A stretch of 64,000 nt of DNA from an uncultured Nitrospirota bacterium. Its GTDB lineage: Bacteria; Nitrospirota; Thermodesulfovibrionia; Thermodesulfovibrionales; JdFR-85. This document shows positions 3,540 through 64,000 of the stretch, piece after piece. The position numbers and the translations under genes are program-made. The stretch spans positions 11,591 to 75,590 of the forward strand of contig CAZEYP010000006.1 in the NCBI GenBank assembly GCA_964515925.1. Reading direction: 5' to 3'. The notes under the pieces are model-generated. The model was not told the DNA's origin and searched no databases. It saw only the letters and a program-made list of their open reading frames with translations. Position 1 is the stretch's first letter. Every line of letters starts with the position of its first letter.

Positions 3540-3655
3540 TACACCTCCCTTGTTCTCAGGCCCGGAGGCCCTGTTTTGAAAACTCTATTTTATTTTCTCA
3601 CAGCCCCTTGTAAATTGGTTATCAAATCGTGTAAATTTTTTGTAAATTTAAAAAT

Positions 3656-3755
3656 ACAGGGGGTAGCGTGTAGGGTGTAAAAAAGACAGGGTGTAGGGGG
3701 TAGCGTGTAGGGGGTAGTAAAAGACAGGGGGTAGCGTGTAGGGAGTAGGGTGTAG
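3656..3755 (+). repeat. G-tract heptamer array (three modules of A-tract + ACAGGG(G/T)GTAG(C/G)GTGTAGGG...)
   Basis: Read directly: acagggggtagcgtgtagggtgt / acagggtgtagggggtagcgtgtagggggtagt / acagggggtagcgtgtagggagtagggtgtag. These are period-7 GTAGGGN/GTAGCGT units. Confidence 0.85.
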
Positions 3756-3760
3756 TTAAG

Positions 3761-3809
3761 GAACGCGATGAACTCAATGAACGCAAAGAACGCAATTAAC
3801 GCAATAACC
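3761..3809 (+). repeat. 9-bp tandem array, 5.4 copies, unit (G/T)AAC(G/T)C(A/G)A(T/A)
   Basis: GAACGCGAT GAACTCAAT GAACGCAAA GAACGCAAT TAACGCAAT AACC. The array ends 6 nt before the AGGAGG RBS of the macro-domain gene. Confidence 0.85.
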
Positions 3810-3826
3810 AATCTCAGGAGGTGTTT

Positions 3827-9579: not shown

Positions 9580-11260
9580 TAACCCCCTCCTTCAGCATTT
9601 CCTGAAGTTTAATCTGCAACTCTGCCAGTAAGACCTGGTCGCCTTCTCTTTCAGCAAGCTTTATCTCCATTTCTATCTCTTTCAGCCGTCTTTTGTATTC
9701 AAGTGATTTTATCTTTTTTACACAGTCAAGTATGTTTTTTTCAATAACTGTTTCGTCAATATCAAATTTTAAAGAAACAGCACCAAAATATGAAAGCTCA
9801 TCCTCAGATAGTATCTCGTGAAAGTTTTTATCCTCTGAATTTATTATTCTGACAAATACATCCCTTAGAGCTGGCTCTCTGATAAATTCAGGTTTTATGC
9901 TTTCTTTTACTATATCGATGTATTCAGGATAGCTTATACAGAGGGCAATCAATAGAGTTTCTGGAGATGGAAGTCCATTAACCCCTCTTTGAGGTACCCC
10001 TTTATCCCTTGCAGCTCTTGAAGGATTTTTAACCTCTTCGTGTATGTAGTTTTCAGGTATGCCTGTTTTTTCAGATAGCTCTCTAATCAATTCTGCTTTC
10101 ATTATGGGATCTGTAATGCCCCTTATTATAGCTGTTAATTCCCTGATTCTGTCTGTCCGTTCTCCTTTTAGAGACAGAAAAAAATCAACGATGTCCTTTA
10201 CCCTTTTAAACTCATCTCTGAAGGAGTCGGCTCCGTGCTCTCTTAAGAATGTATCAGGGTCTGTACCGGGTGGCAGTAGCATTACCTTTGCTGTCATGTT
10301 GTTTGTATATATCAGGGAGAATGCCCTCTTTGAAGCCTTTATACCCGCATCGTCTGCGTCAAATAGTATGAGAATTTTTTTCGTCAAAGGTGATAGTTTT
10401 CTCAGATGCCCCTCTGTAAGCGCAGTGCCAAGTGGTGCAACCACATTCCTGAATCCATATTGATATGTGGTTATAACATCAAGATAACCCTCTGTGATAA
10501 TTACATATCCCTTCTGTGAGATGTGTTTTCTTGCCTGATAAAGGCCAAATAATTCCCTTGATTTGTTGAACAGGGCAGTCTGGGGGGAATTTATGTATTT
10601 GGGTGCAGGGCTTTTTTCATTAATGATTCTTCCACCAAAGGCAATTGGTTCACCCCGCGTATTTATTATAGGGAAGATCAGTCTGTCCCTGAAGGTGTCA
10701 ATGATTTCACCATCAGACTTTTTACAGAGCCCTGAAAGGATTATCTCCTCTTCCTTGAACCCCTCCTTTTTAAGGCGCTCGAGCAGTCCATTTTTACTCC
10801 GAGGGGCATAACCTATCTGGAATATCTCTACCATATCACCCTGGAGACCTCGTTTTTTTAAGTATTCCAATGCAGGGGCATGTTTCTGCAGATGTTCTTT
10901 AAAAAACTCAAGTGCAATCCTGTGCATCTGGACGAGACTGGACCGTTTGGTATTCCACTTTGACGTGCTTTTTTGCTCAACCTTTATCCCGGCTCTGTCA
11001 GCAAGCATCTTTACGGCATCTATGAACTCTACTCCTTCGTATTTCATCACAAAGCTTATGAGGTCTCCACCAACTCCACAACCAAAACAATGGAATATCT
11101 GCTTGGCAGGGCTTACAACAAAGGAAGGGGTCTTTTCTGAATGAAAGGGACAGAGTGCCTTGTAATTTGCTCCAGACTTTTTCAGTTCCAGATGCTCTGA
11201 TATGTAATCAACAATATCTATTCTGTCTCTTATTTCTTCTACTGCCTGAGAGATATTCAT
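9563..11260 (-). CDS. dnaG: DNA primase
   Basis: 565 aa. It has the zinc ribbon [30 protein letters not shown], and the Toprim motifs EGYLDV and LFDADDAG. It overlaps rpoD by 17 nt. Confidence 0.92.
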
Positions 11261-13132: not shown

Positions 13133-13174
13133 TAAATAATATACCAGTTGATGTAAATAATATACCAGTTGATG
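13133..13174. repeat. perfect 21-bp tandem duplication (TAAATAATATACCAGTTGATG x2)
   Basis: 13133..13153 is identical to 13154..13174. It lies in the divergent rpsU / membrane-protein promoter region. Confidence 0.9.
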
Positions 13175-13225: not shown

Positions 13226-13258
13226 ACAGGGAGTAGGGTGTAGGGAGTAGGGGGTATG
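13226..13258 (+). repeat. G-tract heptamer array (ACAGGGAGTAGGGTGTAGGGAGTAGGGGGTATGG)
   Basis: Same motif family as 3656..3755. It contains four GGG tracts separated by 4-nt loops (13229..13254). Confidence 0.85.
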
Positions 13259-13304
13259 GCTCAACTTGTTTTTGGCATACTGATAACACACCATTTAAAT
13301 AAGT

Positions 13305-13310
13305 TATAAT
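13305..13310 (+). promoter_or_regulatory. candidate -10 box (TATAAT) 6 nt upstream of ATG 13317; leaderless-type arrangement
   Basis: aagtTATAATcaatggATG. There is no SD between the box and the start, and the -35 is weak. Confidence 0.4.
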
Positions 13311-13316
13311 CAATGG

Positions 13317-14504
13317 ATGATTGACCTTCTAAAGGTAGCCTGTGTTTTTGTTGTAATCCTTCTTCTTTTAAGAAAAAAGATGAAGGTGGGTTATGTGCTG
13401 CTCATAGCCTCTCTGGTGCTTTATCTGTTTTACATGCCAGGGGCTATGGGTGTAAAGAGTATCATAAAAAGAACCCTCCTTTCACACATAACCCTTGTGT
13501 TGTTGATTGCACTTACTGCCATAAGGATGTTTGAGATGATACTCAGAGAAAGGCAGGTGCTTGATGGGATGATGAAAACAATGGAAAGGCTGCTCAGGCA
13601 TAAAAGGCTTGTTGTTGTATCAATGCCTCTTCTAATAGGTATGATGCCATCAGTGGGGGGTGCCTATTTCTCTGCTCCCATGGTTGATAAGGCAACCTCG
13701 GATATGGAGCTAACACCTGAGGAAAAGACCTTTGCCAATTACTGGTACAGGCATCCCTGGGAATTTGTTCTTCCACTATATCCAGGGGTGGTGCTTGCAT
13801 CTGCAATAACCTCTATTGCATTAAGAGTGCTAATTCTACACAATCTACCTTATGCGGTGGTGATGTTTCTGGTTGGATTTTATTTCATAAAGCGAATAAA
13901 GGGTAAAAACATGACAGTAAGCAGAGGGCAGAGAGGATGGGCATATTTCCTGCCGCTTATGATACTGCTTTTTCTGGTTATTGGATTAAATCTGCCTATA
14001 GAATATGCCTTGTTGATTGTTGTTACAGGTTTGTTAGCCTTTTATCGTTATAGTTTAAAGAAGATAATAAGTGTCATTAAGTATGGCCTTTCTCCAGACA
14101 TTATACTTTTGATTCTTGGTGTGGTTTGCTTCAAGGAGACCCTCGAGATAACCGGTGCAGTTCAAAATATAGGTGATTTTTTCAAACAAAACAATATACC
14201 TCTTCTGCCAGTAGTATTTTTTCTGCCATTTATCACCGGTATCCTGACAGGGATAACAGTTGGCTTTGTAAGCAGTACCTTTCCGTTGATACTGAGCCTT
14301 ACAGGTCCTGAGCCTTATCTTTTCTCACTTGCCTTTGCAGCAGGTTACGCAGGGGTACTGCTTTCTCCTGTGCATGTCTGCCTTATACTTACAAGGGAGT
14401 ACTTCTGTGCTGATGTGCTTCCTTCATACCGCAAGATTTTGCCTGCCACATTAATTGTTGTAGCTGTGGCCCTCATCAAGTATTCCCTATGGAAGTTAAT
14501 GTAG
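13317..14504 (+). CDS. polytopic integral membrane protein (resembles the DUF401 family from memory)
   Basis: 395 aa with about 10 or more hydrophobic segments and no recognisable catalytic motif. Confidence 0.5.
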   Translation: MIDLLKVACVFVVILLLLRKKMKVGYVLLIASLVLYLFYMPGAMGVKSIIKRTLLSHITLVLLIALTAIRMFEMILRERQVLDGMMKTMERLLRHKRLVVVSMPLLIGMMPSVGGAYFSAPMVDKATSDMELTPEEKTFANYWYRHPWEFVLPLYPGVVLASAITSIALRVLILHNLPYAVVMFLVGFYFIKRIKGKNMTVSRGQRGWAYFLPLMILLFLVIGLNLPIEYALLIVVTGLLAFYRYSLKKIISVIKYGLSPDIILLILGVVCFKETLEITGAVQNIGDFFKQNNIPLLPVVFFLPFITGILTGITVGFVSSTFPLILSLTGPEPYLFSLAFAAGYAGVLLSPVHVCLILTREYFCADVLPSYRKILPATLIVVAVALIKYSLWKLM

Positions 14505-17511: not shown

Positions 17512-18498
17512 ATGGAACTCACTATATACGGAACAAATGCATTGACCTATCCCCACCTGCATATCTGGGACTGGAGGATAGCAAGCTATCTTTTCCTTGG
17601 CGGCCTGACCGGTGGAGCACTGGTCATGTCTGCCATTGCCAACCTCAGAAAGGGGAAGAAAGAGCCCGAAGACAGGGCATGCTGTGTGAAGGTGCCTCTT
17701 ATAGCTCCGTTTATACTGATGCTTGGTATGTTTTTCATATTCCTTGATGTTGAAAGAAAGCTCAATTCTTTTCATTTCTATCTGACCTTTCAGCCTCTTT
17801 CACCCATGTCGTGGGGTGCCTGGGGTGTGGGTGCAGTGGTTCCGCTTAGTTTTCTTTATGGTTTGTCCACGGTGCCTGATGACTTGAAACACTGGCTTGT
17901 TTTTGATTTTCTCAAAAAGTGGTCTAAAAAGCTGAATCCCTACATGCGGGAGCTGGCGGTTATTAACTTTGTAATGGGTATCTTTGTGGGCATATACACT
18001 GGTGTGCTTCTTAGTTCCTTTGTGGCAAGACCACTCTGGAATTCGGCTCTGCTTCCCATACTGTTTCTGAATTCAGCCCTGTCTACAGGAGCAGCGCTGG
18101 TGATAATAATGGCAAGGAAAAACGAGGTGAAGCTCTTCTTCACAAAGGTGGATATATGGCTGATATTTTCAGAGATTACCCTTATTGCCCTGTTCTTCTA
18201 TGGCCATTACACATCCACTGCGTCTCACAGGGAATCAATAATGCCCTTTTTTACCTTCTCCCATGAGTTTTTCCCTTACTGGATCAGTGTCCTCCTTCTG
18301 AGCATCATATTCCCTCTTGCCATTGTGCTTAAATTCCTTGAGGTAAAGGGTGAGCATTCAGAGACACTGACTGGATTTGAGAAGTTCAGGATGAACCTCA
18401 GCGCCATTCTTGTGCTGGTTGGTGGATTCATTATCAGGATGGCACTTATCTATGCAGGTCAGCTTATTAAGATGACAGACAAGATAGCGAAGTTTTAA
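17512..18498 (+). CDS. NrfD/PsrC-type integral membrane quinol-interacting anchor subunit
   Basis: 328 aa with about 8 TM segments. It is the third gene of an A-B-C complex iron-sulfur molybdoenzyme operon. Confidence 0.75.
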   Translation: MELTIYGTNALTYPHLHIWDWRIASYLFLGGLTGGALVMSAIANLRKGKKEPEDRACCVKVPLIAPFILMLGMFFIFLDVERKLNSFHFYLTFQPLSPMSWGAWGVGAVVPLSFLYGLSTVPDDLKHWLVFDFLKKWSKKLNPYMRELAVINFVMGIFVGIYTGVLLSSFVARPLWNSALLPILFLNSALSTGAALVIIMARKNEVKLFFTKVDIWLIFSEITLIALFFYGHYTSTASHRESIMPFFTFSHEFFPYWISVLLLSIIFPLAIVLKFLEVKGEHSETLTGFEKFRMNLSAILVLVGGFIIRMALIYAGQLIKMTDKIAKF

Positions 18499-22763: not shown

Positions 22764-22800
22764 TTGTTACCCCCTTTCTTTTGTTTAAATTTAAACTTAA

Positions 22801-22873
22801 GGGTGTAGGGTGTAGGGGGTAGCGTGTAGTGATTAATTTTTTTACTACTCCCTACTCCCTACACCCTACTCCC
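22801..22873. repeat. inverted pair of 30-nt heptamer arrays (G-rich 22801..22830, C-rich 22844..22873) forming a long imperfect hairpin
   Basis: gggtgtagggtgtagggggtagcgtgtagt / 13-nt A/T loop / actactccctactccctacaccctactccc. I count 26 of 30 positions as complementary. Confidence 0.85.
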
Positions 22874-22877
22874 TTTT

Positions 22878-24116
22878 TTATTCCCTGTTTATCTCCTTCA
22901 GCACTTCCTCAAAGGCATCAAGAGAGGGTTTGATGAGCTTTGGCTCATCCATCCTTCCATCAAGTGCCTCTTTGGTTTTAAGACCGTTTCCTGTTATGCA
23001 TATAACGGTGGTTTCGTTTTTACCAATCCTGCCCTGCTCAATCAGCTTTTTTGTGACAGCCACGGTAACTCCACCTGCAGTCTCTGCAAAGATTCCTTCG
23101 GTGCGGGCAAGCATCTTAATACCTTCAACTATCTCATCATCTGTTACATCCTCTCCATAGCCACCTGAGTCCTTAACCGCTTTGTAGGCATAGTATCCAT
23201 CAGCAGGATTTCCTATTGCAAGGGATTTTGCAATGGTGTCAGGTTTAACCGGTCTTATTACATCGGTATCATTCTTGATTGCCGTGGCAATGGGATTACA
23301 GCCGAGGGCCTGGGCAGCAAAGACCCTGGTGCTTACATCCTTCAGAAGTCCCACCTCTTTTAGTTCTTTAAAGGCCTTCCATATCTTTGTAAGCAAAGAA
23401 CCGCTTGCACAGGGCACCACCACATTATCGGGTGCCTTCCAGCCAAGCTGCTCAGCTATCTCAAAGCCTATGGTCTTTGAACCCTCAGCATAAAAGGGTC
23501 GGATGTTTATATTAACAAAGGCCCATTTGTATTTATTAGCGATTTCACTGCATAGACGATTAACATCATCATAGTTTCCATCCACTGCTATAAGATTGGG
23601 AACGAAGACCTGTGATGAAACAATTTTACTCTGCTCCAGGGTTGCAGGTATGAAAATAAACCGATTAAAGCCAGCCTTTGCACCCTGGGCTGATACAGAA
23701 TGGGCAAGGTTTCCTGTTGATGCGCAGGCAACAGTGTCAAAACCGAACTCCTTTGCCTTTGTAAGTGCAACTGCCACCACCCTGTCTTTAAATGAGAAAG
23801 TGGGATGTGCCACGGTGTCGTCCTTTATGTATAGTTCTTTAACGCCAAGCTCTTTTGCCAGATTATTGGCCTTGACCAGTGGAGTAAATCCCGAGTACAG
23901 GCCTGCCTGTGGCTCTCCATCTATTGGCAGGAGTTCTTTGTATCGCCAGAGGTTTTCATCTCTATTTTCAATCCTCTTTTTTGTTACAGCCTTTTTTATC
24001 CTCTGGTAGTCATAAACAACCTCTAATGGACCAAAACAGAACTCACATACATATATGGGTTCTATGGCATACTCTCTGCCGCATTCACGGCACTTAAGTC
24101 CGGTAACAAACCCCAT
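22878..24116 (-). CDS. threonine synthase paralog (PLP fold type II) with N-terminal zinc ribbon
   Basis: 412 aa. The N-terminus reads CRECGREY..CEFCFGPLE. The PLP motif is HPTFSFKDRVVA, followed by STGNLAHSVSAQGA. This is the second ThrC-family gene in the cluster. Confidence 0.75.
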   Translation of the reverse strand: MGFVTGLKCRECGREYAIEPIYVCEFCFGPLEVVYDYQRIKKAVTKKRIENRDENLWRYKELLPIDGEPQAGLYSGFTPLVKANNLAKELGVKELYIKDDTVAHPTFSFKDRVVAVALTKAKEFGFDTVACASTGNLAHSVSAQGAKAGFNRFIFIPATLEQSKIVSSQVFVPNLIAVDGNYDDVNRLCSEIANKYKWAFVNINIRPFYAEGSKTIGFEIAEQLGWKAPDNVVVPCASGSLLTKIWKAFKELKEVGLLKDVSTRVFAAQALGCNPIATAIKNDTDVIRPVKPDTIAKSLAIGNPADGYYAYKAVKDSGGYGEDVTDDEIVEGIKMLARTEGIFAETAGGVTVAVTKKLIEQGRIGKNETTVICITGNGLKTKEALDGRMDEPKLIKPSLDAFEEVLKEINRE

Positions 24117-28183: not shown

Positions 28184-28225
28184 GATTTCAGATTTCAGAT
28201 TTTTGATTTAAGATTTTGAATTTTA
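28184..28225 (+). repeat. heptamer array GATTTNN x6
   Basis: GATTTCA GATTTCA GATTTTT GATTTAA GATTTTG AATTTTA, immediately after the hisF stop. Confidence 0.85.
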
Positions 28226-28240: not shown

Positions 28241-28284
28241 TAACTCAATAAACGCATGAACTCAATTAACGCAATAAACGCAAA
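28241..28284 (+). repeat. 9-bp tandem array (about 5 copies) of the AAC(G/T)CAAT family upstream of tkt
   Basis: TAACTCAAT AAACGCAT GAACTCAAT TAACGCAAT AAACGCAAA, followed by cagGGAGGctttATG (tkt). Confidence 0.85.
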
Positions 28285-28296
28285 CAGGGAGGCTTT

Positions 28297-30282
28297 ATGA
28301 AGATTGACGAAATCTGTATCAATACCATCAGGTTTCTTGCAGTAGATGCTGTGCAGAAGGCAAATTCAGGACATCCTGGCATGCCAATGGGTGATGCAGC
28401 AATGGCATATGTGCTCTGGCATAAGTTCTTAAAACATAATCCCAGGAATCCCCGGTGGTTTAACCGTGATAGATTCGTGCTTTCAGCAGGCCATGGCTCC
28501 ATGTTGCTTTACAGCCTTTTGTACCTCACAGGTTATCCGCTTACACTCAAGGATATAAAAAACTTCCGTCAGTGGGGCTCTAAGACACCAGGGCATCCTG
28601 AGCACGACCCTGATGTGGGAGTAGAAACCACCACAGGACCCCTTGGGCAGGGTTTTTCCACTGGAGTTGGAATGGCAATAGCCGAGAGGTATCTGAGTGA
28701 GTATTTCAACCGTAGAGGGTTCCCTGTGGTTGATTACAACATATACGCCATCTGTAGTGATGGTGACCTGATGGAGGGAGTGGCTTCAGAGGCTGCCTCG
28801 CTTGCAGGACATCTGGGGCTTGGAAAGATTGTATATCTTTATTCAGACAACAGAATTACCATTGAGGGTTCCACAGACCTTGCGTTTACTGAGGATGTTG
28901 AGAAGAGGTTTCTTGCCTATGGCTGGCATGTCCAGAAGGTTGACGGTAATGACCTCAAGGCAATTGAGAAGGCCATAAGGGCAGCAAAGAAAGAGAAGAA
29001 GAGACCCTCACTTATTATTGCACGCACCCATATTGCCTTTGGAAGCCCCAACAAACAGGACACACCTGAGTCGCACGGTGCACCCCTTGGAGAGGAGGAG
29101 ATAAGGCTTACAAAAAAGAATCTTGGATGGCCGACTCGCAAGTTCTATGTGCCTAAGGATGCCCTCAGACACATGAGGAAGGCAGTTCAGAAGGGAAGGG
29201 TAGAGGAAAAGAAATGGAAGGATTTGATGAAGAGATACAAAAAGACCTATCCTGAACTCCATGAAAGGTTTGTTCAGTTTACAGAGGGTCTGCTTCCAGA
29301 TGGCTGGGATAGGGACCTGCCTGCTTTTTCACCAGAGGATGGCCCATTAGCCACCCGCTCAGCATCGGGCAAGGTGCTTAATGTCCTTGCCGAAAGGGTA
29401 GAAAACCTTATAGGTGGTTCTGCTGACCTTGCGCCTTCTAACAATACATATCTGAAGAAGTATCCTGACTTTGGTGTGAAGAAGGCTGGAAGGAACCTTC
29501 ACTTCGGGGTAAGGGAGCATGCAATGGGTGCTGCCCTTAATGGAATGGCGCTTAATGGTGGAGTGATTCCTTACGGTGGAACATTTCTCATCTTTTCTGA
29601 TTATATGCGTCCATCCATCAGGCTTGCTGCAATGATGCGTCAGCATGTGGTCTATGTGTTTACCCACGATTCAATTGGTCTTGGTGAGGATGGCCCAACT
29701 CATCAGCCGGTTGAGCAACTTTCCTCACTTCGTCTGATTCCCAACTTCACCGAGATACGACCTGCTGATGCCAACGAGGCAAGAGAGGCCTGGAGGATAG
29801 CACTTAAGCACAGGAATGGCCCGGTGGCACTTATTCTTACAAGGCAGAAGGTGCCGGTGATTGATAGAAAAAAATACGCATCTGAAAAGGGCATACACAA
29901 AGGTGCATATATACTGGCTGATACAAAGGGTACACCTGATATTATCCTTATAGCCTCTGGCTCTGAGGTTCACCTTGCCCTTGAAGCCTTCGAGGCTTTA
30001 AAAGCAAAGGGTGTGAATGCAAGGGTGGTGAACATGGCATCCTTCAGACTCTTTGAGGAACAGCCACAGTCTTATAAAAACAGGGTGATTCCTCCACAGG
30101 TAACAAAGAGGCTTGCAATAGAAGCAGGTGCCAGCCTCTGCTGGTATAAGTATGTGGGGGCTCAGGGAGATGTAATAGGTGTTGACCGTTTCGGAGCCTC
30201 TGCGCCATACAGGGTGATATTTGAAAAATACGGCTTTACCGTGGAAAATGTGATAAAGAGGGCATTGAAGTTGCTTGGGTAG
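28297..30282 (+). CDS. tkt: transketolase
   Basis: 661 aa with [10 protein letters not shown] and the ThDP motif GDGDLMEGV. Confidence 0.92.
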
Positions 30283-31149: not shown

Positions 31150-31156
31150 GTATTCT

Positions 31157-31184
31157 AAATCCGAAATCTAAAATCCTAAATTTA
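31157..31184 (-). repeat. heptamer array (NNGATTT on the minus strand; AAATCNN x4 on plus) abutting the EamA gene start
   Basis: aaatccg aaatcta aaatcct aaattta on the plus strand, which is the sense orientation for the minus-strand gene starting at 31149. Confidence 0.8.
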
Positions 31185-31390
31185 TCATCTTCCTTTTGCC
31201 AATACACTAATAACCAATATACCAAATATACTAACTCCCTCTAACCCTTTAATATAGAAGTAAACATGCTGATTGTCTTATGTTTTAAATTGCAGATATA
31301 GTAATATGATAGAATAATCTACAAATTATTTATAAGTGAAACTCTCTGACAGCCCAGATAACATGGCAGAACAATACGAAGGAGACGAAT

Positions 31391-32920: not shown

Positions 32921-33061
32921 GAGCCTGAAATGCTATCCTGTTTAGCTGAAAAAGGTTCTTTTTTTGATACATTGAAGGTCATCCTTTCCTCAGACTCCAG
33001 ATAATGATTTAAATGATTACAGGAATACCTTGATTGTTAAGGGGGATCTCCCAACTTCCGA

Positions 33062-33163
33062 CGTTAGAAATCGTTAGAAATAGAAATACTCGTTAGAAAT
33101 ACGTTAGAAATAGCCGCGTAAGAAATAGACATTAGAAATAGAAAGTTAGAAAATTATAGAAAA
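33062..33163 (+). repeat. array of about 8 (C)GTTAGAAAT-type units at 10-15 bp spacing
   Basis: cgttagaaat x2 adjacent, then cgttagaaat, cgttagaaat, cgtaagaaat, ttagaaat, gttagaaaa and tagaaaa. Confidence 0.85.
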
Positions 33164-33170
33164 TTAGTGA

Positions 33171-33211
33171 CTGTTGACACCTGTTGACAGTTATGTTGAC
33201 GGTCTGTTGAC
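33171..33211 (+). repeat. four (C/A)TGTTGAC units at 10-13 bp spacing
   Basis: ctgttgac (33171), ctgttgac (33181), atgttgac (33193) and ctgttgac (33204). Confidence 0.85.
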
Positions 33212-33263
33212 GGTAATTTTAAGGGGTTTGGAGAGATAACTTATTGATTTTAAAGAAAACATC

Positions 33264-40055: not shown

Positions 40056-40848
40056 TTTTCAGTACCTTTAATGCCCTGTCGTGAATATCGGGATTTGCGC
40101 TACAGAGCATGGGTGGTGTTTTCTTCATGGATAATTTTATTTTTTCGTAACTATTTCCTTCAAGGTCTGATATAGTTCCTCCTGCCTCTCTGAGCAGCAG
40201 AAGCCCTGCAGCATAATCGAAGCTCCTTGTTGGAGCAGGGTTTACATAAAGACTGGCAGCAGAAGATGCAACAAACGCAAGATCAAGAGCGGTTGAGCCA
40301 AGACACCTTGTTCTGTTTGCCAGTGACAGAAGTGGCAGAAGCCTCTTTATGTCTCTTCCAGGCACCTGTGTCTCATAGACTATGACCCTTATGTCTGAGG
40401 AGCTCTGTGAAGAGACCGGGCTACCATTCAGGAAGGCACCCTTTCCCCTTTCTGCCCAGAACTCATCACCACTTATGTAGTTGACAATGTAAGACAGGTA
40501 AAGTCCTGATACTGTATCGTTTCTGGATATAGCAATAGAACTACAAAACAGTGGAATCCCTGTTACTGCGTTTTTACTCCCATCAATAGGGTCAATTATG
40601 AGGTAATCTCCACCACCGTTAATTTCTACCTCTCCAAGCTCCTCAGAGACCACAGTGGCAGAAATCCCCCTTTTTTTGATCAGCTCGATTATAAGGTTTT
40701 CAGCCACCTCATCGATCTCAAAGGTTTTATCCCCTGCCGCTCCTTTTCTCAGGGGCCTATCGGCTGTGGCTGAAAACCTTAAAGGTGGTATAACCTCCTT
40801 TAATTTCCTGCCTATATCTCTTAAAAACTCTATATCAATCTTATCCAT
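40045..40848 (-). CDS. inositol monophosphatase / FBPase family protein
   Basis: 267 aa. IDPIDGSKNA and the metal-binding pattern of the IMPase superfamily. Confidence 0.75.
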   Translation of the reverse strand: MDKIDIEFLRDIGRKLKEVIPPLRFSATADRPLRKGAAGDKTFEIDEVAENLIIELIKKRGISATVVSEELGEVEINGGGDYLIIDPIDGSKNAVTGIPLFCSSIAISRNDTVSGLYLSYIVNYISGDEFWAERGKGAFLNGSPVSSQSSSDIRVIVYETQVPGRDIKRLLPLLSLANRTRCLGSTALDLAFVASSAASLYVNPAPTRSFDYAAGLLLLREAGGTISDLEGNSYEKIKLSMKKTPPMLCSANPDIHDRALKVLKNDG

Positions 40849-40851
40849 TTC

Positions 40852-40879
40852 TTCCCTACACGCTACCCGCTACACCCTA
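40852..40879 (-). repeat. G-tract heptamer element (G-rich on the minus strand) filling the rnpB-IMPase spacer
   Basis: The minus strand reads ttagggtgtagcgggtagcgtgtagggaagaaATG. It belongs to the same family as 3656..3755. Confidence 0.8.
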
Positions 40880-40886
40880 ATTTATT

Positions 40887-41315
40887 GGGCAGGCAATAAG
40901 CCGGGTTCTGTACTGGTGGTCATTTATCTGAGGCAGAGGATTGCTCCCCTGCTCATGCGGCCTACCCGTTCCGTACAATCAGGCGGGCCACCTTCTGGGC
41001 GGAACCTATTTGGCCTTGCTCCGGACAGGGTTTGCCGTGCCTGGAGTGTCGCCACCCCAGCGGTGGGCTCTTACCCCACCTTTTCACCCTTACCCCGCAC
41101 CCAGTTGGTTTTCAGAAGGGTGTCTTTTCCAATCTGGCAATAAAGATTAGTGCTATAACCTTCTTTTTACTCCTGAAACCCAACTGGGTGCGGGGCGGTC
41201 TGTTTTCTGTGGCACTTTCCCTTGGCTTACGCTAGGTGGCTGTTAGCCACTGTCCTGCCCTGCGGAGCCCGGACTTTCCTCTGGAGTATATACTCCAGCG
41301 ACCACCTGCCTGCCC
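40887..41315 (-). ncRNA. rnpB: RNase P RNA (bacterial type A) with extended P12
   Basis: The minus strand contains GAGGAAAGTCCGGGCTCC, GGTAAGGGTGAAAAGGTGGGGTAAGAGCCCACC, GGAGCAAGGCCAAATAGG and ACAGAACCCGGCTTAT. P1 pairs GGGCAGGCA with TGCCTGCCC. The ends are approximate to within a few nt. Confidence 0.9.
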
Positions 41316-41431
41316 TTTATATTTTGTGGTTAAACAAGAACAAATTAATAAGCCTGGGGCTTACCCAGGGAGTTTCATTTATTTTAGCATTTTCCTGTTG
41401 TTTAATATGGGGGAGTAAAAAACAACAATAT

Positions 41432-41459
41432 AAATCACAAATCTAAAATCTTACATCTT
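41432..41459 (-). repeat. heptamer array (AAATCNN x4 on plus) straddling the rnhA stop, upstream of rnpB
   Basis: aaatcac aaatcta aaatctt acatctt. Confidence 0.7.
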
Positions 41460-41888
41460 AGATTTGATAGCTTTTTTAGAAAGCGCATCGGCCTCTTTGT
41501 TCATCTCCCTTGGAACATGATTAATCTCAACGGCACCGAAAGCTTCAAGCAGTTTTTTTACTTTTGCAAACAGGGGCTTAAGCCCCTCATTTTTTACCTT
41601 ATAGATACCTTTTAGTTGCCTTACAATGAGCTCTGAGTCAAGATAAATTTCTACCTCTTCTACACCTTTGTCTTTTACCATCTCAAGTGCCCTTAATAAA
41701 GCAGTATATTCAGCAACATTGTTTGTGGCAATGCCAATAAACTCTGAGATGGTTTTCTTTTTATCATCAATAATTACAACGGCCCCTATACCAGCCGGGC
41801 CAGGATTGCCACTTGATGCGCCATCTGAGTATATAACGGCTTTGGAGGGGACTATTTTCGGTAAAGGAATCTGCCGCATTGAGGACAC
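41451..41888 (-). CDS. ribonuclease HI family protein
   Basis: 145 aa. AVIYSDGASSGNPGPAGIG...NNVAEYTALLRALE...LDSELIVRQL...REMNKEADALSKKA carries the DEDD RNase H fold motifs. Confidence 0.8.
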   Translation of the reverse strand: MSSMRQIPLPKIVPSKAVIYSDGASSGNPGPAGIGAVVIIDDKKKTISEFIGIATNNVAEYTALLRALEMVKDKGVEEVEIYLDSELIVRQLKGIYKVKNEGLKPLFAKVKKLLEAFGAVEINHVPREMNKEADALSKKAIKSKM

Positions 41889-61915: not shown

Positions 61916-62269
61916 ATGCATCCCTATAAAAGGTCTAAAAGGGTAGGAGACCTGTTCAGAGAGGAGATTGCCGAGATAATAATGAACAGGGTTAAGGACC
62001 CAAGGGTCGGGTTTGTTACCGTTACATCGGTTAAGGTCTCTGACGACCTGAGCTATGCAAGGGTTTTTATTAGTGTATTGAAGAAAGAGGATACAGAGGA
62101 GACGCTAAGTGTGCTTAACTCGGCAAGCGGTTTTATACGAAGCGAAATAGGTAAGAGGGTCAGGATAAAAAAACTCCCGAGGTTCGAGTTTTTTGAAGAC
62201 GAAACCCTGGAGTATGGTGCCCGCATAGATAGTCTTCTTAAAAAGCTAAAACAAGAGGAAGGGTCTTGA
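61916..62269 (+). CDS. rbfA: ribosome-binding factor A
   Basis: 117 aa. RSKRVGDLFREEIAEII...DPRVGFVTVTSVKVSDDLSYARVF. Confidence 0.9.
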   Translation: MHPYKRSKRVGDLFREEIAEIIMNRVKDPRVGFVTVTSVKVSDDLSYARVFISVLKKEDTEETLSVLNSASGFIRSEIGKRVRIKKLPRFEFFEDETLEYGARIDSLLKKLKQEEGS

Positions 62270-63225
62270 TAGTACCTGAAGATATTATCAGGTTAATACA
62301 AAAAGAGAATCGTTTTCTTATTGCTTCCCATCTTAACCCCGAAGGTGATGCCATTGGTACAACCCTGGCACTTTATCTTGCACTTAAAGACAGGGGAAAG
62401 GATGTGATTGCATACAATGTAGATGGCGTTCCCTATTTATACGAATTCCTTCCACACTCAGGGGCTTTGATTAAAGACCTTGATAGTGTAACTACCGAAG
62501 AATACATACTTATGCTCGTTGATTGTAATGAACCTGAGAGGGCATCGGTTGAAGAAAAGAGATTTAAAAGTATCGTGGTTATAGATCACCATCTCACGCA
62601 GAAGGAGTTTGGCGATATCAGGTGGATAGAGTCTCGAGCACCTGCTACAGGTATAATGGCATATCATTTGATTAAAGCTCTTGGTATTGAAATCAGCAGG
62701 GACATGGCTGTAAATCTTTACACTGCAATATCCATTGACACTGGTACATTCCGTTACGACAATACCACATCTGAAACCCTGAGGGTGGCTGCAGAACTGA
62801 TAGACAGAGGGGCTGACCCTGCAGAGATTGCAATAAGACTTTACGAATCCTGGACACACAACAGGTTTCAGCTTCTTGTCAGGATGCTTCAAACCCTTGA
62901 GATAATAGATGCTGGACAGTGTAAGATAGCGATTACATACATAACATTGGATATGTTTAGACAGACAGGCACAACAGAGGCAGATACTGAAAACTTTTCA
63001 AATTTTGCCCGTATGATTGACGATGTTGATGTCTCGGTGATGTTCAGAGAGACAGAGCCTAAGAAATGGAAGGCAAGTATGAGGGGGAAAGGCAGGGTAA
63101 ATCTTGCCCGGGTAGCATCTGAACTTGGAGGGGGTGGACATAGAAATGCAGCCGGTTTCAGGGCTGATGGAAGCCTTGAGACTCTGAAGAGGATGTTAAT
63201 TGAGACAATGAGGCAGGGAGTATAG
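62266..63225 (+). CDS. nrnA: DHH/DHHA1 phosphoesterase (NrnA-type oligoribonuclease / pAp phosphatase)
   Basis: 319 aa with the DHH motif VIDHH and the DHHA1 motif GGGGHRNAAG. Confidence 0.8.
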   Translation: MIVPEDIIRLIQKENRFLIASHLNPEGDAIGTTLALYLALKDRGKDVIAYNVDGVPYLYEFLPHSGALIKDLDSVTTEEYILMLVDCNEPERASVEEKRFKSIVVIDHHLTQKEFGDIRWIESRAPATGIMAYHLIKALGIEISRDMAVNLYTAISIDTGTFRYDNTTSETLRVAAELIDRGADPAEIAIRLYESWTHNRFQLLVRMLQTLEIIDAGQCKIAITYITLDMFRQTGTTEADTENFSNFARMIDDVDVSVMFRETEPKKWKASMRGKGRVNLARVASELGGGGHRNAAGFRADGSLETLKRMLIETMRQGV

Positions 63226-63230
63226 AATTA

Positions 63231-63296
63231 GGGAGTAGGTGGTAAAAAAGACAGGGTGTAGGGTGTAGCGGGTAGCGTGTAGGGAGTAGGGTGTAG
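63231..63296 (+). repeat. G-tract heptamer array (second full copy of the composite element)
   Basis: gggagtaggtggtaaaaaagacagggtgtagggtgtagcgggtagcgtgtagggagtagggtgtag. Confidence 0.85.
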
Positions 63297-63301
63297 TTAA
63301 G

Positions 63302-63370
63302 GAACGCGATGAACTCAATGAACGCAATTAACGCAAAGAACTCAAATAACGCAAATAACGCAATTAACGG
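63302..63370 (+). repeat. 9-bp tandem array, 7.6 copies
   Basis: GAACGCGAT GAACTCAAT GAACGCAAT TAACGCAAA GAACTCAAA TAACGCAAA TAACGCAAT TAACGG. Confidence 0.85.
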
Positions 63371-64000
63371 AGTTATAAATCTATACAAGCCCCCGGATAT
63401 CACATCCCATAAGGCTGTTAAGAAGGTACAGGGCATTCTTGGGGCAAAAAAGGCAGGCCATGCGGGCACCCTTGATCCCTTTGCCGAAGGGGTGTTGCTT
63501 GTCTGCATAAACAGTGCTACCCGCATTGTAGAGTTTCTCATTGACCTAAAAAAGGAATACATTGTAGAGATACAGCTTGGAATAGAAACCGATACCTTTG
63601 ATATCACAGGTAATACAGTCAACGAAAAGGATCCCTCGCATGTTACTGAAGAGCAACTAATAGATGTTTTCAGTAATTTCAGAGGTGAAATATTACAGAC
63701 ACCACCAGTGTATTCGGCTATAAAAAAAGGAGGTGTTCCTCTTTATAAACTTGCAAGAAAGGGTATTACTGTAGAACCTGAACCAAGGCGTGTGTATATT
63801 GAAGAGCTAAAACTCTTAAATTTTAATACACCTTATGTTATAATTTCAGTCAAATGTTCAAAGGGAACCTATGTGAGGTCCTTAGTGAATGATATAGGGA
63901 GACAGTTAGAGGTGGGAGCAGTTGTGAAGTCATTAAAGAGAACTGCTGTGGGTAACTTTAGGGCTGAAGAATCTGTAAGCCTTAGTGAGCTTGAAGCAGG
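63309..64000 (+). CDS. truB: tRNA pseudouridine-55 synthase TruB (partial; runs off window end); start codon lies inside the 9-mer array
   Basis: Not in the ORF track because it is open at the window edge. My translation reads [65 protein letters not shown] (catalytic Asp motif GTLDP). The only in-frame ATGs upstream of NGVINLYKP are 63309 (AAGGA 5 nt upstream) and 63318. Confidence 0.85.
   Translation, partial: [230 protein letters not shown]

Follow-up and report, generated by a model that had tools for sequence, protein, structure and literature searches.

Modular motifs that are palindromic and fold stably make up the bacterial interspersed mosaic elements (BIMEs) of E. coli and the pneumococcal BOX elements (boxA-(boxB)n-boxC), and in cyanobacteria several families of short tandemly repeated repetitive (STRR) heptamers, originally described in Calothrix, are dispersed between the genes around one genome; we know of no nonamer partner or junction core described for the latter. 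The heptamers GGGAATC and GGGGA(C/T)T of Xanthomonas and Nostoc are likewise dispersed in non-coding DNA with a preference for four tandem units, and their function is open (Rehm et al. 2015, PMC4692102). TAACTGA intergenic direct repeats were reported from marine Beggiatoaceae, cyanobacteria and Bacteroidetes (MacGregor 2015, PMC4679880), and tandem repeats of Borg elements are reported to create new disordered protein segments (PMC9879509). Here, we analyse a composite repeat element present twice in a stretch of 64,000 nt from an uncultured Nitrospirota bacterium (the window), one copy lying upstream of a macro-domain gene and the other, at 63,231 to 63,370, at the start of truB encoding tRNA pseudouridine-55 synthase. 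This element is one member of a dispersed, modular (mosaic) intergenic repeat family, in which a full element consists of an A-rich spacer (AAAAAGACA), a heptad module, a short junction and a nonamer array, arranged in this order on one strand. The explanation we favour combines this mosaic family, a recent conversion event and a translation-initiation leader, and we give it as a whole a probability of about 0.6. Its descriptive part, i.e. the dispersed mosaic family, the recent conversion and the capture of the truB start, is held with good confidence, and its functional part, an unstructured leader or ribosome standby region, is put forward tentatively.

Comparison with described repeat systems

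The family falls within the known bacterial long simple sequence repeats (SSRs) and mosaic intergenic repeats; of special interest are the traceable junction subtypes, the position-specific conservation and the capture of the truB start, and our literature searches returned no description of such repeats in Nitrospirota. As in BIME and BOX elements, short motifs follow each other in a fixed order, the number of internal modules varies and the elements are dispersed in intergenic regions that are transcribed, for the present family by prediction. In contrast to these and to REP elements, the composites are not built from palindromic stem-loop units and show no Watson-Crick structure (z about 0), only an inverted heptad pair at 22800-22874 being able to fold. 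STRR are matched by the presence of several dispersed intergenic tandem heptamer families in one genome, although sequences and phylum are different.

With the Xanthomonas/Nostoc heptamers the family shares tandem G-tract 7-nt units dispersed in non-coding DNA (six intergenic sites in the 64 kb and two more on contig L139), the preference for four units, a location mostly in co-directional spacers and, at six sites, on the sense strand within ~50 bp past stops, strong variation between species at orthologous spacers and housekeeping neighbours (PMC4692102). Unlike them, it uses the unit G[G/C]GNGTA in a fixed unit order with an A-rich spacer in front, contains a GCG unit which breaks the G-tract, with most arrays not being strict quadruplex motifs, and couples the heptads to a nonamer array via conserved junction cores. 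Ahead of genes, the heptads of this family have the sense orientation and the published repeats the antisense one (PMC4692102). The nonamers resemble the TAACTGA repeats in being forward direct repeats just upstream of starts, at or overlapping the ribosome-binding site, in their unrelated and often essential neighbours, in a patchy spread across phyla and in the proposed role in translation (PMC4679880). This start-proximal forward position is found at the macro gene, tkt, L006 and truB, the copy on L007 and the two on L139 being exceptions. The nonamers differ from TAACTGA in having an unrelated sequence and a 9-nt unit with a 7-nt core plus two free positions, in-frame ATGs and an always-open frame. 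As in the Borg repeats, a unit length being a multiple of three extends open reading frames (ORFs) with a low-complexity peptide; unlike these, the family is chiefly intergenic and the truB fusion one captured case (PMC9879509).

Results

Two copies share an identical junction core

The 58-mer GGGTAGCGTGTAGGGAGTAGGGTGTAGTTAAGGAACGCGATGAACTCAATGAACGCAA has two exact matches in the window, both on the + strand (Table 1), confirming the earlier note, which had described a second full copy of the same composite with 58 of 58 identical positions. A third match with up to 3 mismatches was not found in the window, 100 dinucleotide-preserving shuffles yielded zero matches and the chance expectation is 0. 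Between non-paired family members the longest exact matches reach 8-31 nt, which makes the 58-nt identity exceptional compared to the family background. The flanking arrays are unequal, as had also been noted: Tandem Repeats Finder (TRF) assigns 5.0 nonamer copies (3761-3805) to the first locus and 7.6 copies (63302-63369) to the second, and the heptads form a 38-nt super-period of 2.6 copies (3661-3756) corresponding to three heptad modules at the first locus versus a 6.3-unit run (TRF period 7) plus a 2-unit stub at the second. Variants of the spacer AAAAAGACA are present at 3650-3658 and 3718-3726, and the identical spacer precedes modules in the related sequences L136, L008 and L139.

Table 1. 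Coordinates of the repeat features and adjoining genes in the window
Feature	Position	Strand	Description
Three spacer + heptad modules, first copy	3650-3755	+	3650-3679, 3680-3717, 3718-3755
Heptad array, first composite	3659-3755	+	
58-nt core, first copy	3729-3786	+	exact match
Nonamers, first copy	3762-3815	+	five units + degenerate ACCAATCTC; abuts AGGAGG Shine-Dalgarno site
Upstream ORF, 22 codons	3768-3836	+	MNSMNAKNAINAITNLRRCLWS*; opens at core ATG; overlaps macro ATG 3827 by 10 nt
Macro-domain gene	Shine-Dalgarno AGGAGG 3816-3821; ATG 3827	+	Macro domain match
Heptads only	13228-13259	+	GGGAGTA GGGTGTA GGGAGTA GGGGGTA; divergent spacer, 57 nt upstream of DUF401 gene
Heptad arm	22800-22831	+	inverted pair
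Heptad arm	22845-22874	-	inverted pair
Third nonamer array	28242-28283	+	abuts AGGGAGG Shine-Dalgarno of transketolase gene (tkt)
Heptads only	40854-40880	-	GGGTGTA GCGGGTA GCGTGTA GGG; fills 32-nt gap from RNase P RNA to ATG 40848
DHH/NrnA-like gene	62266-63225	+	DHH/DHHA1 domains; upstream neighbour of second copy
Heptad stub, second copy	63231-63244	+	GGGAGTA GGTGGTA; 6 nt past TAG stop (63223-63225) of DHH/NrnA-like gene
Heptad array, second composite	63231-63296	+	
A-rich spacer before heptad module	63245-63253	+	AAAAAGACA; identical spacer at 3680-3688
Heptad module, second copy	63254-63296	+	GGGTGTA GGGTGTA GCGGGTA GCGTGTA GGGAGTA GGGTGTA G; from TRF and unit logo
58-nt core, second copy	63270-63327	+	last heptads + junction TTAAGG + first 2.8 nonamers
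Shine-Dalgarno-like site and truB start	63299-63311	+	AAGGA (63299-63303), 5-nt gap, ATG (63309)
Nonamer array, second copy, 8 units	63303-63374	+	AACGCGATG AACTCAATG AACGCAATT AACGCAAAG AACTCAAAT AACGCAAAT AACGCAATT AACGGAGTT
truB, 5' part	63309-64000	+	tRNA pseudouridine-55 synthase; TruB_N, TruB_C_2; runs off window

A dispersed family of ordered heptad and nonamer modules

The heptad logo G[G/C]G[T/G/A]GTA was derived from 61 units with four dominant variants; 46 of the units contain GGG and the other 15 G-C-G instead. The recurrent order within a module is GGGTGTA GGGGGTA GCGTGTA GGGRGTA preceded by AAAAAGACA, and 11 out of 16 modules have four units, with orthologous modules not being independent of each other in this count. 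For the nonamers, 79 units from 11 loci result in the logo A-A-C-g-C-a-A-w-N (AACGCAAWN), in which positions 1, 2, 3, 5 and 7 hardly vary and the information content of position 9 is 0.08 bit. Conservation extends to the wobble positions of AAC and GCA, which makes the variation unlike that of codons; peptide coding does not account for the motif. Its position-specific conservation across loci and species points to constraint or strong homogenisation rather than to simple slippage.

The window contains six heptad sites and three nonamer arrays (AACGCAANN), all of which are intergenic. Heptads occur outside of composites in three further settings. The module at 13228-13259 is a strict G-quadruplex motif; a consensus TATAAT (13305-13319 region) lies 6 nt before the DUF401 ATG (13317), where no Shine-Dalgarno site is present, which suggests a leaderless DUF401 mRNA and would place these heptads at about -58 to -90. 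The inverted pair at 22800-22874 consists of four-unit modules forming a hairpin with 29-bp arms (-47.5 kcal/mol, z = -7.25) between the stop of a pyridoxal-phosphate (PLP) enzyme gene (22878) and the start of a ThiS-like gene (22763). The hairpin begins 4 nt behind the stop codon of this PLP-enzyme gene (22878-24116 on the minus strand) and has A/T runs on both sides, so that the repeat family seems to have provided a terminator or an RNA-stabilising hairpin here. The third module follows the 3' end (40881) of RNase P RNA (40881-41317, Rfam 314 bits) and precedes an inositol-monophosphatase-family (suhB-like) gene with the ATG at 40848; its last unit, GGGAAG, may serve as Shine-Dalgarno site of this gene. 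At tkt, the nonamers are preceded by GATTTCA-type heptads (28184-28224) instead of G-heptads. Rfam 15 searched over the window at gathering score gave only RNase P RNA and two tRNAs and no family at the composites, and scans for sigma-70 promoters and terminators around both copies revealed nothing relevant to the element above shuffle expectation.

Composites outside of the window and a second identical pair

The full composite was found with the same order and polarity in three places of the related metagenome-assembled genome (MAG) CAZIIE01 (L006-L008), once in L136 and twice in L139. A scan of genome contigs for the composite detected it in one Nitrospirota MAG only, and a scan of metagenome contigs for the composite pattern yielded no match, that collection evidently lacking this lineage. 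In L008 (4292-4509), an N run is flanked on both sides by the same nonamer sequence, and this array may be longer or duplicated. L139 was reached via P0244, one of nine weak small ORFs that were the only matches to the array-encoded peptide used as protein query. L002 and L131 come from the sample of this contig too, and the tetranucleotide compositions of contig and window correlate (r = 0.985), for which reasons L139 probably belongs to the same genome. Its composites at 9940-10094 (+) and 17687-17907 (-) are 7.7 kb apart in inverted relative orientation, and one of them supplies the TAG stop of a tadA-like deaminase gene. They share an exact core of 65 nt with a different junction type (GTAGGGTGGTAGCCTTAAACACAAT...) and have 9 versus ~21 nonamers. 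An identical junction core flanked by unequal arrays is therefore a recurrent property of the family, and ordered modules with junction subtypes allow copy events between loci to be traced, as for the 58-nt and 65-nt pairs.

Homologues of TruB and of the macro protein carry the labels Nitrospirae, Nitrospirota or Thermodesulfovibrionales. Among cultured organisms, the closest relative found is Dissulfurispira thermophila, which has a macro protein 77% identical to that of the window and shows neither synteny at the macro locus nor such arrays in 20 kb, containing only other short repeats, e.g. CTTAAC, in this region. Scanning metagenome contigs for three consecutive nonamers gave >120 loci, about one third of which are coding Gln/Thr/Asn repeats or unrelated; none of the loci has GTAGGGN heptads or an orthologue of a window gene. 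An Omnitrophota MAG (GCA_043823785.1, L141 3130-3240) contains a nonamer array of 11 units that has the core of the family and runs antisense to the genes on either side. The 16-mer AACGCGATGAACTCAA is common to this array and the 58-nt core of the window, with an estimated chance probability of ~0.03.

A recent copy between pre-existing arrays

The block at 3607-3646 (CTTGTAAATTGGTTATCAAATCGTGTAAATTTTTTGTAAA) with three TGTAAA repeats, downstream of which the first-copy modules are located, is conserved in the interval separating the molybdopterin oxidoreductase gene from the macro gene in five species and is probably a divergent promoter or operator region. The spacer behind it differs strongly. 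In the window it contains three heptad modules and five nonamers after the conserved block, in L136 (~91% DNA identity) one module and eight nonamers, in L008 two modules and six or more nonamers, in L137 a one-unit heptad remnant, an inverted CTAAAT-type array and ten nonamers, and in L138 one module followed by CTAAGTA/CTAAATA heptads and no nonamers. CTAAAT-type arrays thus stand in for G-heptads at the macro locus of L137 and L138. The heptads and nonamers of L136 and L008 are joined by GGGAGTAGG(G)AAAAA(A)CGCAACG, unlike the window junction TGTAGTTAAGGAACGCGATGAACTCAATG.

A similar turnover is observed at truB. The TruB N-terminus of the window (P0001) reads MNSMNAINAKNSNNANNAINGVINLYKPP, that of P0002 (L133, 76% identity) MSMNANNEINGVINLYKPP and that of P0003 (L134, 72%) MNATNAINAINAINGVINLYKPP, these three closest TruBs having Asn/Ala-rich extensions of differing length, whereas more distant orthologues (up to 62% identity) begin with MTKSGVINLYKPP or MDGVINLYKP at the usual start position. 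At the DNA level, L134 has a nonamer array of 7.6 units and L133 a degenerate one of ~3 units, both in frame with truB, and neither heptads nor the AAGGA junction was found at truB of these two species. Among the related species compared, the junction TGTAGTTAAGGAACGCGATGAACTCAATG occurs at none of the orthologous truB or macro loci.

Both loci hence carried arrays earlier and the junction is ancestral at neither of them, by which the 58-bp identity is explained as a recent copy between pre-existing arrays. It would have passed between the two loci or into both from a third copy, and by sequence comparison the event is younger than the ~9% divergence from L136. A search for flanking inverted repeats gave no terminal inverted repeats or target duplications common to the two copies; the inverted repeats of 9-11 nt present are locus-specific, differ between the copies and lie in the conserved promoter block and in the truB coding sequence. 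Since the orthologues possess arrays but lack the junction, and since the copies have neither terminal inverted repeats nor target duplications in common, we prefer ectopic gene conversion or templated repair over transposition, and the identity is most likely the footprint of such a recent non-reciprocal copy. Homology for copying would come from the heptads at one end of the core and from the nonamers at its other end. The heptad half of the core resembles the ancestral module of the macro locus, but this module is shared throughout the family, and aligning the junction half with the truB start of L133 gives an ambiguous result, so that the copy has no assignable direction. Of the proposal in the earlier note, i.e. 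recent duplication or gene conversion plus slippage, the recent transfer stands and conversion fits best, duplication or transposition fits less well, and slippage finds no support in the array data given below.

The repeat supplies the start of truB

That the core carries AAGGA followed by ATG had been pointed out before, and this was an understatement because the ATG is the annotated truB start. Gene callers place the start of truB at position 11394 of L001, corresponding to 63309 of the window, and the full-length TruB of L001 has 308 residues. Upstream of the conserved GVINLYKPP sequence the only canonical in-frame starts are ATG 63309 and ATG 63318, both within the core, and the next one falls beyond the catalytic GTLDP motif. 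As no other in-frame start is usable, the repeat supplies the Shine-Dalgarno site, the AUG and 20 codons of truB, and from this lack of an alternative we infer that TruB begins with MNSMNAINAKNSNNANNAIN via a repeat-borne AUG. The nonamers at 63303-63374 are in the truB frame and encode the peptide (M)NSMNAINAKNSNNANNAING, whereas the relatives have repeat-derived extensions of 10 and 14 residues. A repeat has thereby become the translation start of a conserved housekeeping gene, with the length of its Asn/Ala N-terminus differing in three species.

At the macro gene, the same core ATG opens the upstream ORF listed in Table 1, and in L137 a gene finder called a homologous 35-aa upstream ORF. 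At tkt, the nonamer array gives rise to a 14-codon upstream ORF (28256-28300) that ends in a TGA overlapping the tkt ATG (28297). The AAC-GCA-ANN frame can never hold a stop codon, and its openness is therefore intrinsic to the unit.

Discussion

A putative role in translation initiation

The location of the blocks suggests a role at the level of RNA. The element lies on the sense strand in five of five informative co-directional Nitrospirota spacers, i.e. truB, tkt, RNase P/suhB-like, L006 and L007. The distance from the last nonamer to the Shine-Dalgarno site is 0-10 nt at the macro gene (window, L136 and L137), at tkt and in L006, and at truB the nonamers contain the gene start in three species. 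Six heptad arrays (63231, 22874, 40880, L139a, L139b and L007) start no more than 7 nt past the 3' end of a co-oriented gene, and the gene order infB-DUF503-rbfA-nrnA-truB, read as an operon, predicts that the truB copy of the block is transcribed. Compared to shuffled sequences, the composite RNAs fold with z = +0.91 and +0.11, showing no Watson-Crick structure; the sense RNA of the block is C-poor and the heptads hold the Shine-Dalgarno-like sequences GGGAG and GGGUG. This is consistent with a model according to which the block acts as an unstructured leader or ribosome standby region that would set translation initiation downstream, in which the Shine-Dalgarno-resembling heptads could form G-quadruplexes in the leader RNA and concerted evolution between copies would keep the motif intact. 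We consider this role possible at somewhat less than even odds.

Several observations weigh against it. Transcription of the block and use of the AUG rest on gene order and on the missing alternative start. Both L139 composites lie between convergent genes and have no downstream gene to serve, the L007 composite lies ~115 nt upstream of the next start and ahead of a promoter-like sequence (TGGTATAAT), the 13228 heptads are upstream of TATAAT and perhaps never transcribed, and the Omnitrophota array is antisense with respect to both neighbours. A Shine-Dalgarno site before the array ATG is present only in the window junction and is missing in L134 and L137. The genome is seen here through the 64-kb window and ~20 kb of probable same-genome sequence, and the motif could persist through concerted evolution alone, with no function needed.

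Alternative explanations

This last point leads to a strong and serious rival, according to which the arrays are neutral or selfish DNA, i.e. spacer arrays homogenised by gene conversion ('molecular drive') with no cis-function, and truB uses the AUG by accident, an array having grown across its original start. Composites are indeed found in every type of spacer, even between convergent genes, the spacer arrays at the macro locus have turned over almost wholly among five species with flanking proteins being 89-96% identical, the adjoining genes have unrelated housekeeping functions and the published heptamer families are likewise without demonstrated function (PMC4692102). Neutrality has to be reconciled, however, with position-specific conservation across loci and across species so diverged that synonymous sites have long been saturated, which conversion could explain, and moreover with the order and polarity of heptads followed by nonamers being fixed in six independent loci, with the sense strand in all five informative spacers and with the preference for four heptads (11 of 16 modules). 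The biases in strand and order are less easily explained by conversion than the position-specific conservation, and we regard the neutral account, for the family as well as for the truB start, as doubtful, though to be taken seriously.

The heptad modules may also be considered as G-quadruplex elements of the Xanthomonas/Nostoc GGGNATC type, the four G-tracts of a module folding just after stops, in DNA or RNA, and thereby protecting 3' ends or modulating transcription or translation, with the nonamers being a mere unstructured tail. Units with G3-tracts, the four-unit preference and the match to the GGGNATC repeats agree with this, as do sense-strand sites up to 50 bp past stops (PMC4692102), to be compared with the six arrays here within 7 nt of a gene 3' end. 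G4Hunter maxima reach 1.2-1.96, and ViennaRNA with the G-quadruplex option on forms a quadruplex at 13229 and at 22873 (minus). In contrast, the recurrent GCG unit breaks the G-tracts, the strict motif (loops up to 7 nt) is present in two of the six window arrays, and the 58-mer loci qualify only if loops of up to 12 nt are allowed, with the quadruplex-aware fold predicting none there; the potential to form quadruplexes is moderate and uneven among the arrays. As the nonamers and the conserved junction cores are left unexplained in addition, quadruplex formation as the main function appears improbable.

Less probable still, a strand-specific post-transcriptional system not described so far might be at work, in which the block is a cis-element and a dedicated trans-factor, either an RNA-binding protein or a ribosome-associated component, recognises the nonamer core (A-A-C-x-C-x-A), the G-heptads or both. 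Such a factor would set the initiation of many housekeeping genes, with the motif being shared or horizontally spread across phyla, and in a variant the arrays would be written by a dedicated templated repeat-addition activity instead of ordinary slippage. Such a spread is suggested by other uncultured low-GC contigs and the Omnitrophota MAG, which have nonamer arrays of identical core, one of these arrays containing the 16-mer AACGCGATGAACTCAA.

Tandem repeats of 7-9 bp are bound by proteins of the ribbon-helix-helix type, as exemplified by the omega repressor heptads of pSM19035 and the 8-bp metboxes of MetJ, so that the arrays might be DNA-level sites for cooperative binding of such a protein or a nucleoid protein, similar to operators or centromere-like iterons. 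Strict phasing of 7 and 9 bp, combined with core positions that are invariant and spacer positions that are free, is in agreement with this, some arrays lie upstream of promoter-like sequences (L007, 13228), and unrelated metagenome contigs as well as the Omnitrophota MAG also have the nonamer core, as if a factor were shared. A sense-strand bias is, however, not expected of double-stranded sites, many copies lie inside operons or between convergent genes far from promoters and no candidate binding protein is linked to the loci, making DNA-level binding rather implausible.

Concerning the origin of the second copy, transposition of a small non-autonomous element resembling a miniature inverted-repeat transposable element (MITE) is very unlikely. 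The element is dispersed and multi-copy with a well-defined identical core, and a Transposase_mut gene is located ~8 kb beyond the end of the window; yet the terminal inverted repeats and target-site duplications that define MITEs are not shared, the identity ends inside the arrays instead of at element ends and related species carried arrays at both loci before the core appeared. The Transposase_mut gene (IS256-family) lies at 19132-20354 of L001, where L002 and L003 carry a different long ORF; strains thus differ by an insertion close to the pil operon.

A phase-variable contingency locus, in which changes of array length switch truB or the macro gene, receives a similarly low rating. Array lengths do vary between loci and strongly between species, as seen in the TruB extensions of 20, 14 and 10 residues. 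Contigs of three JGI metagenomes (3300009408, 3300023503 and 3300023507) and of two Logan assemblies encode the rbfA and macro-domain proteins found in the window, and we compared lengths between the window and the three JGI assemblies, i.e. between assemblies rather than reads. The truB locus is base-for-base identical in all three JGI assemblies and the macro locus differs by one T-to-C exchange at a variable nonamer position in one sample, so copy numbers are the same at both loci in all four assemblies and the length polymorphism that the earlier note had proposed to look for is not seen in this set. The units are imperfect, and adjacent nonamers share the variable dinucleotide in 7 of 68 cases versus 8.5 expected by chance, which makes the arrays unlike products of recent single-unit slippage and speaks against the VNTR-like (variable-number tandem repeat) behaviour suggested earlier as a recent process. 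Perfect units shifting frame or spacing, as in phase-variable loci, are absent; 9-nt units cannot shift the reading frame, and the associated genes are housekeeping genes and do not encode surface proteins. The unequal lengths at the two loci are better read as older, independent arrays into which a common core was pasted.

An assembly artefact (chimeric join or collapsed repeat), which the earlier note had named as the finding that would overturn the identity, can practically be dismissed: short-read Logan contigs do end at or within the core, which is to be expected of a sequence truly present in several copies, but three further assemblies from three samples reproduce both loci on separate contigs with unique flanks on either side, and the truB reading frame is unbroken across the block.

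Implications and minor observations

Long SSRs of 5-11 nt are abundant in scattered bacterial lineages with their function being open, and the family described here makes this question more tractable. With 58 bp in direct orientation, the identity has a length sufficient for homologous recombination, so that these blocks are potential breakpoints at which the 59.5 kb between them could be deleted or duplicated. Repeat blocks of this type also explain the fragmentation of short-read assemblies at intergenic spacers in these organisms.

Further AT-rich heptamer and octamer families, i.e. GATTTCA/GATTTAA, CTAAATC and CCAATATA, occupy the window spacers 28184-28224, 31155-31236 and 41439-41469, and the GATTTCA family recurs in L139 (82-161). 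A 346-nt spacer beside a tRNA gene contains at 33060-33215 short arrays of CGTTAGAAAT (four units), TAGAAAAT and TGTTGACRG (four units), the last of which repeats the -35-like TTGAC four times. A perfect tandem duplication of the 21-mer TAAATAATATACCAGTTGATG is located at 13133-13174 in the same divergent spacer as the 13228 heptads. The cumulative GC skew has its minimum at ~28 kb, changing sign from negative to positive, which may reflect gene-strand bias; as a candidate oriC this position found no support, a DnaA-box scan having revealed no cluster. Array orientation follows the gene strand and not the GC skew.

In five metagenome contigs with a GC content of 33-36% (L015, L128, L109, L114 and L060), AACGCWATN nonamers lie between small toxin-antitoxin-like gene pairs. 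The same spacers hold inverted CGTAAAG heptad hairpins and series of small TTCCAG-stem-loop units, a layout that recalls cassette arrays.

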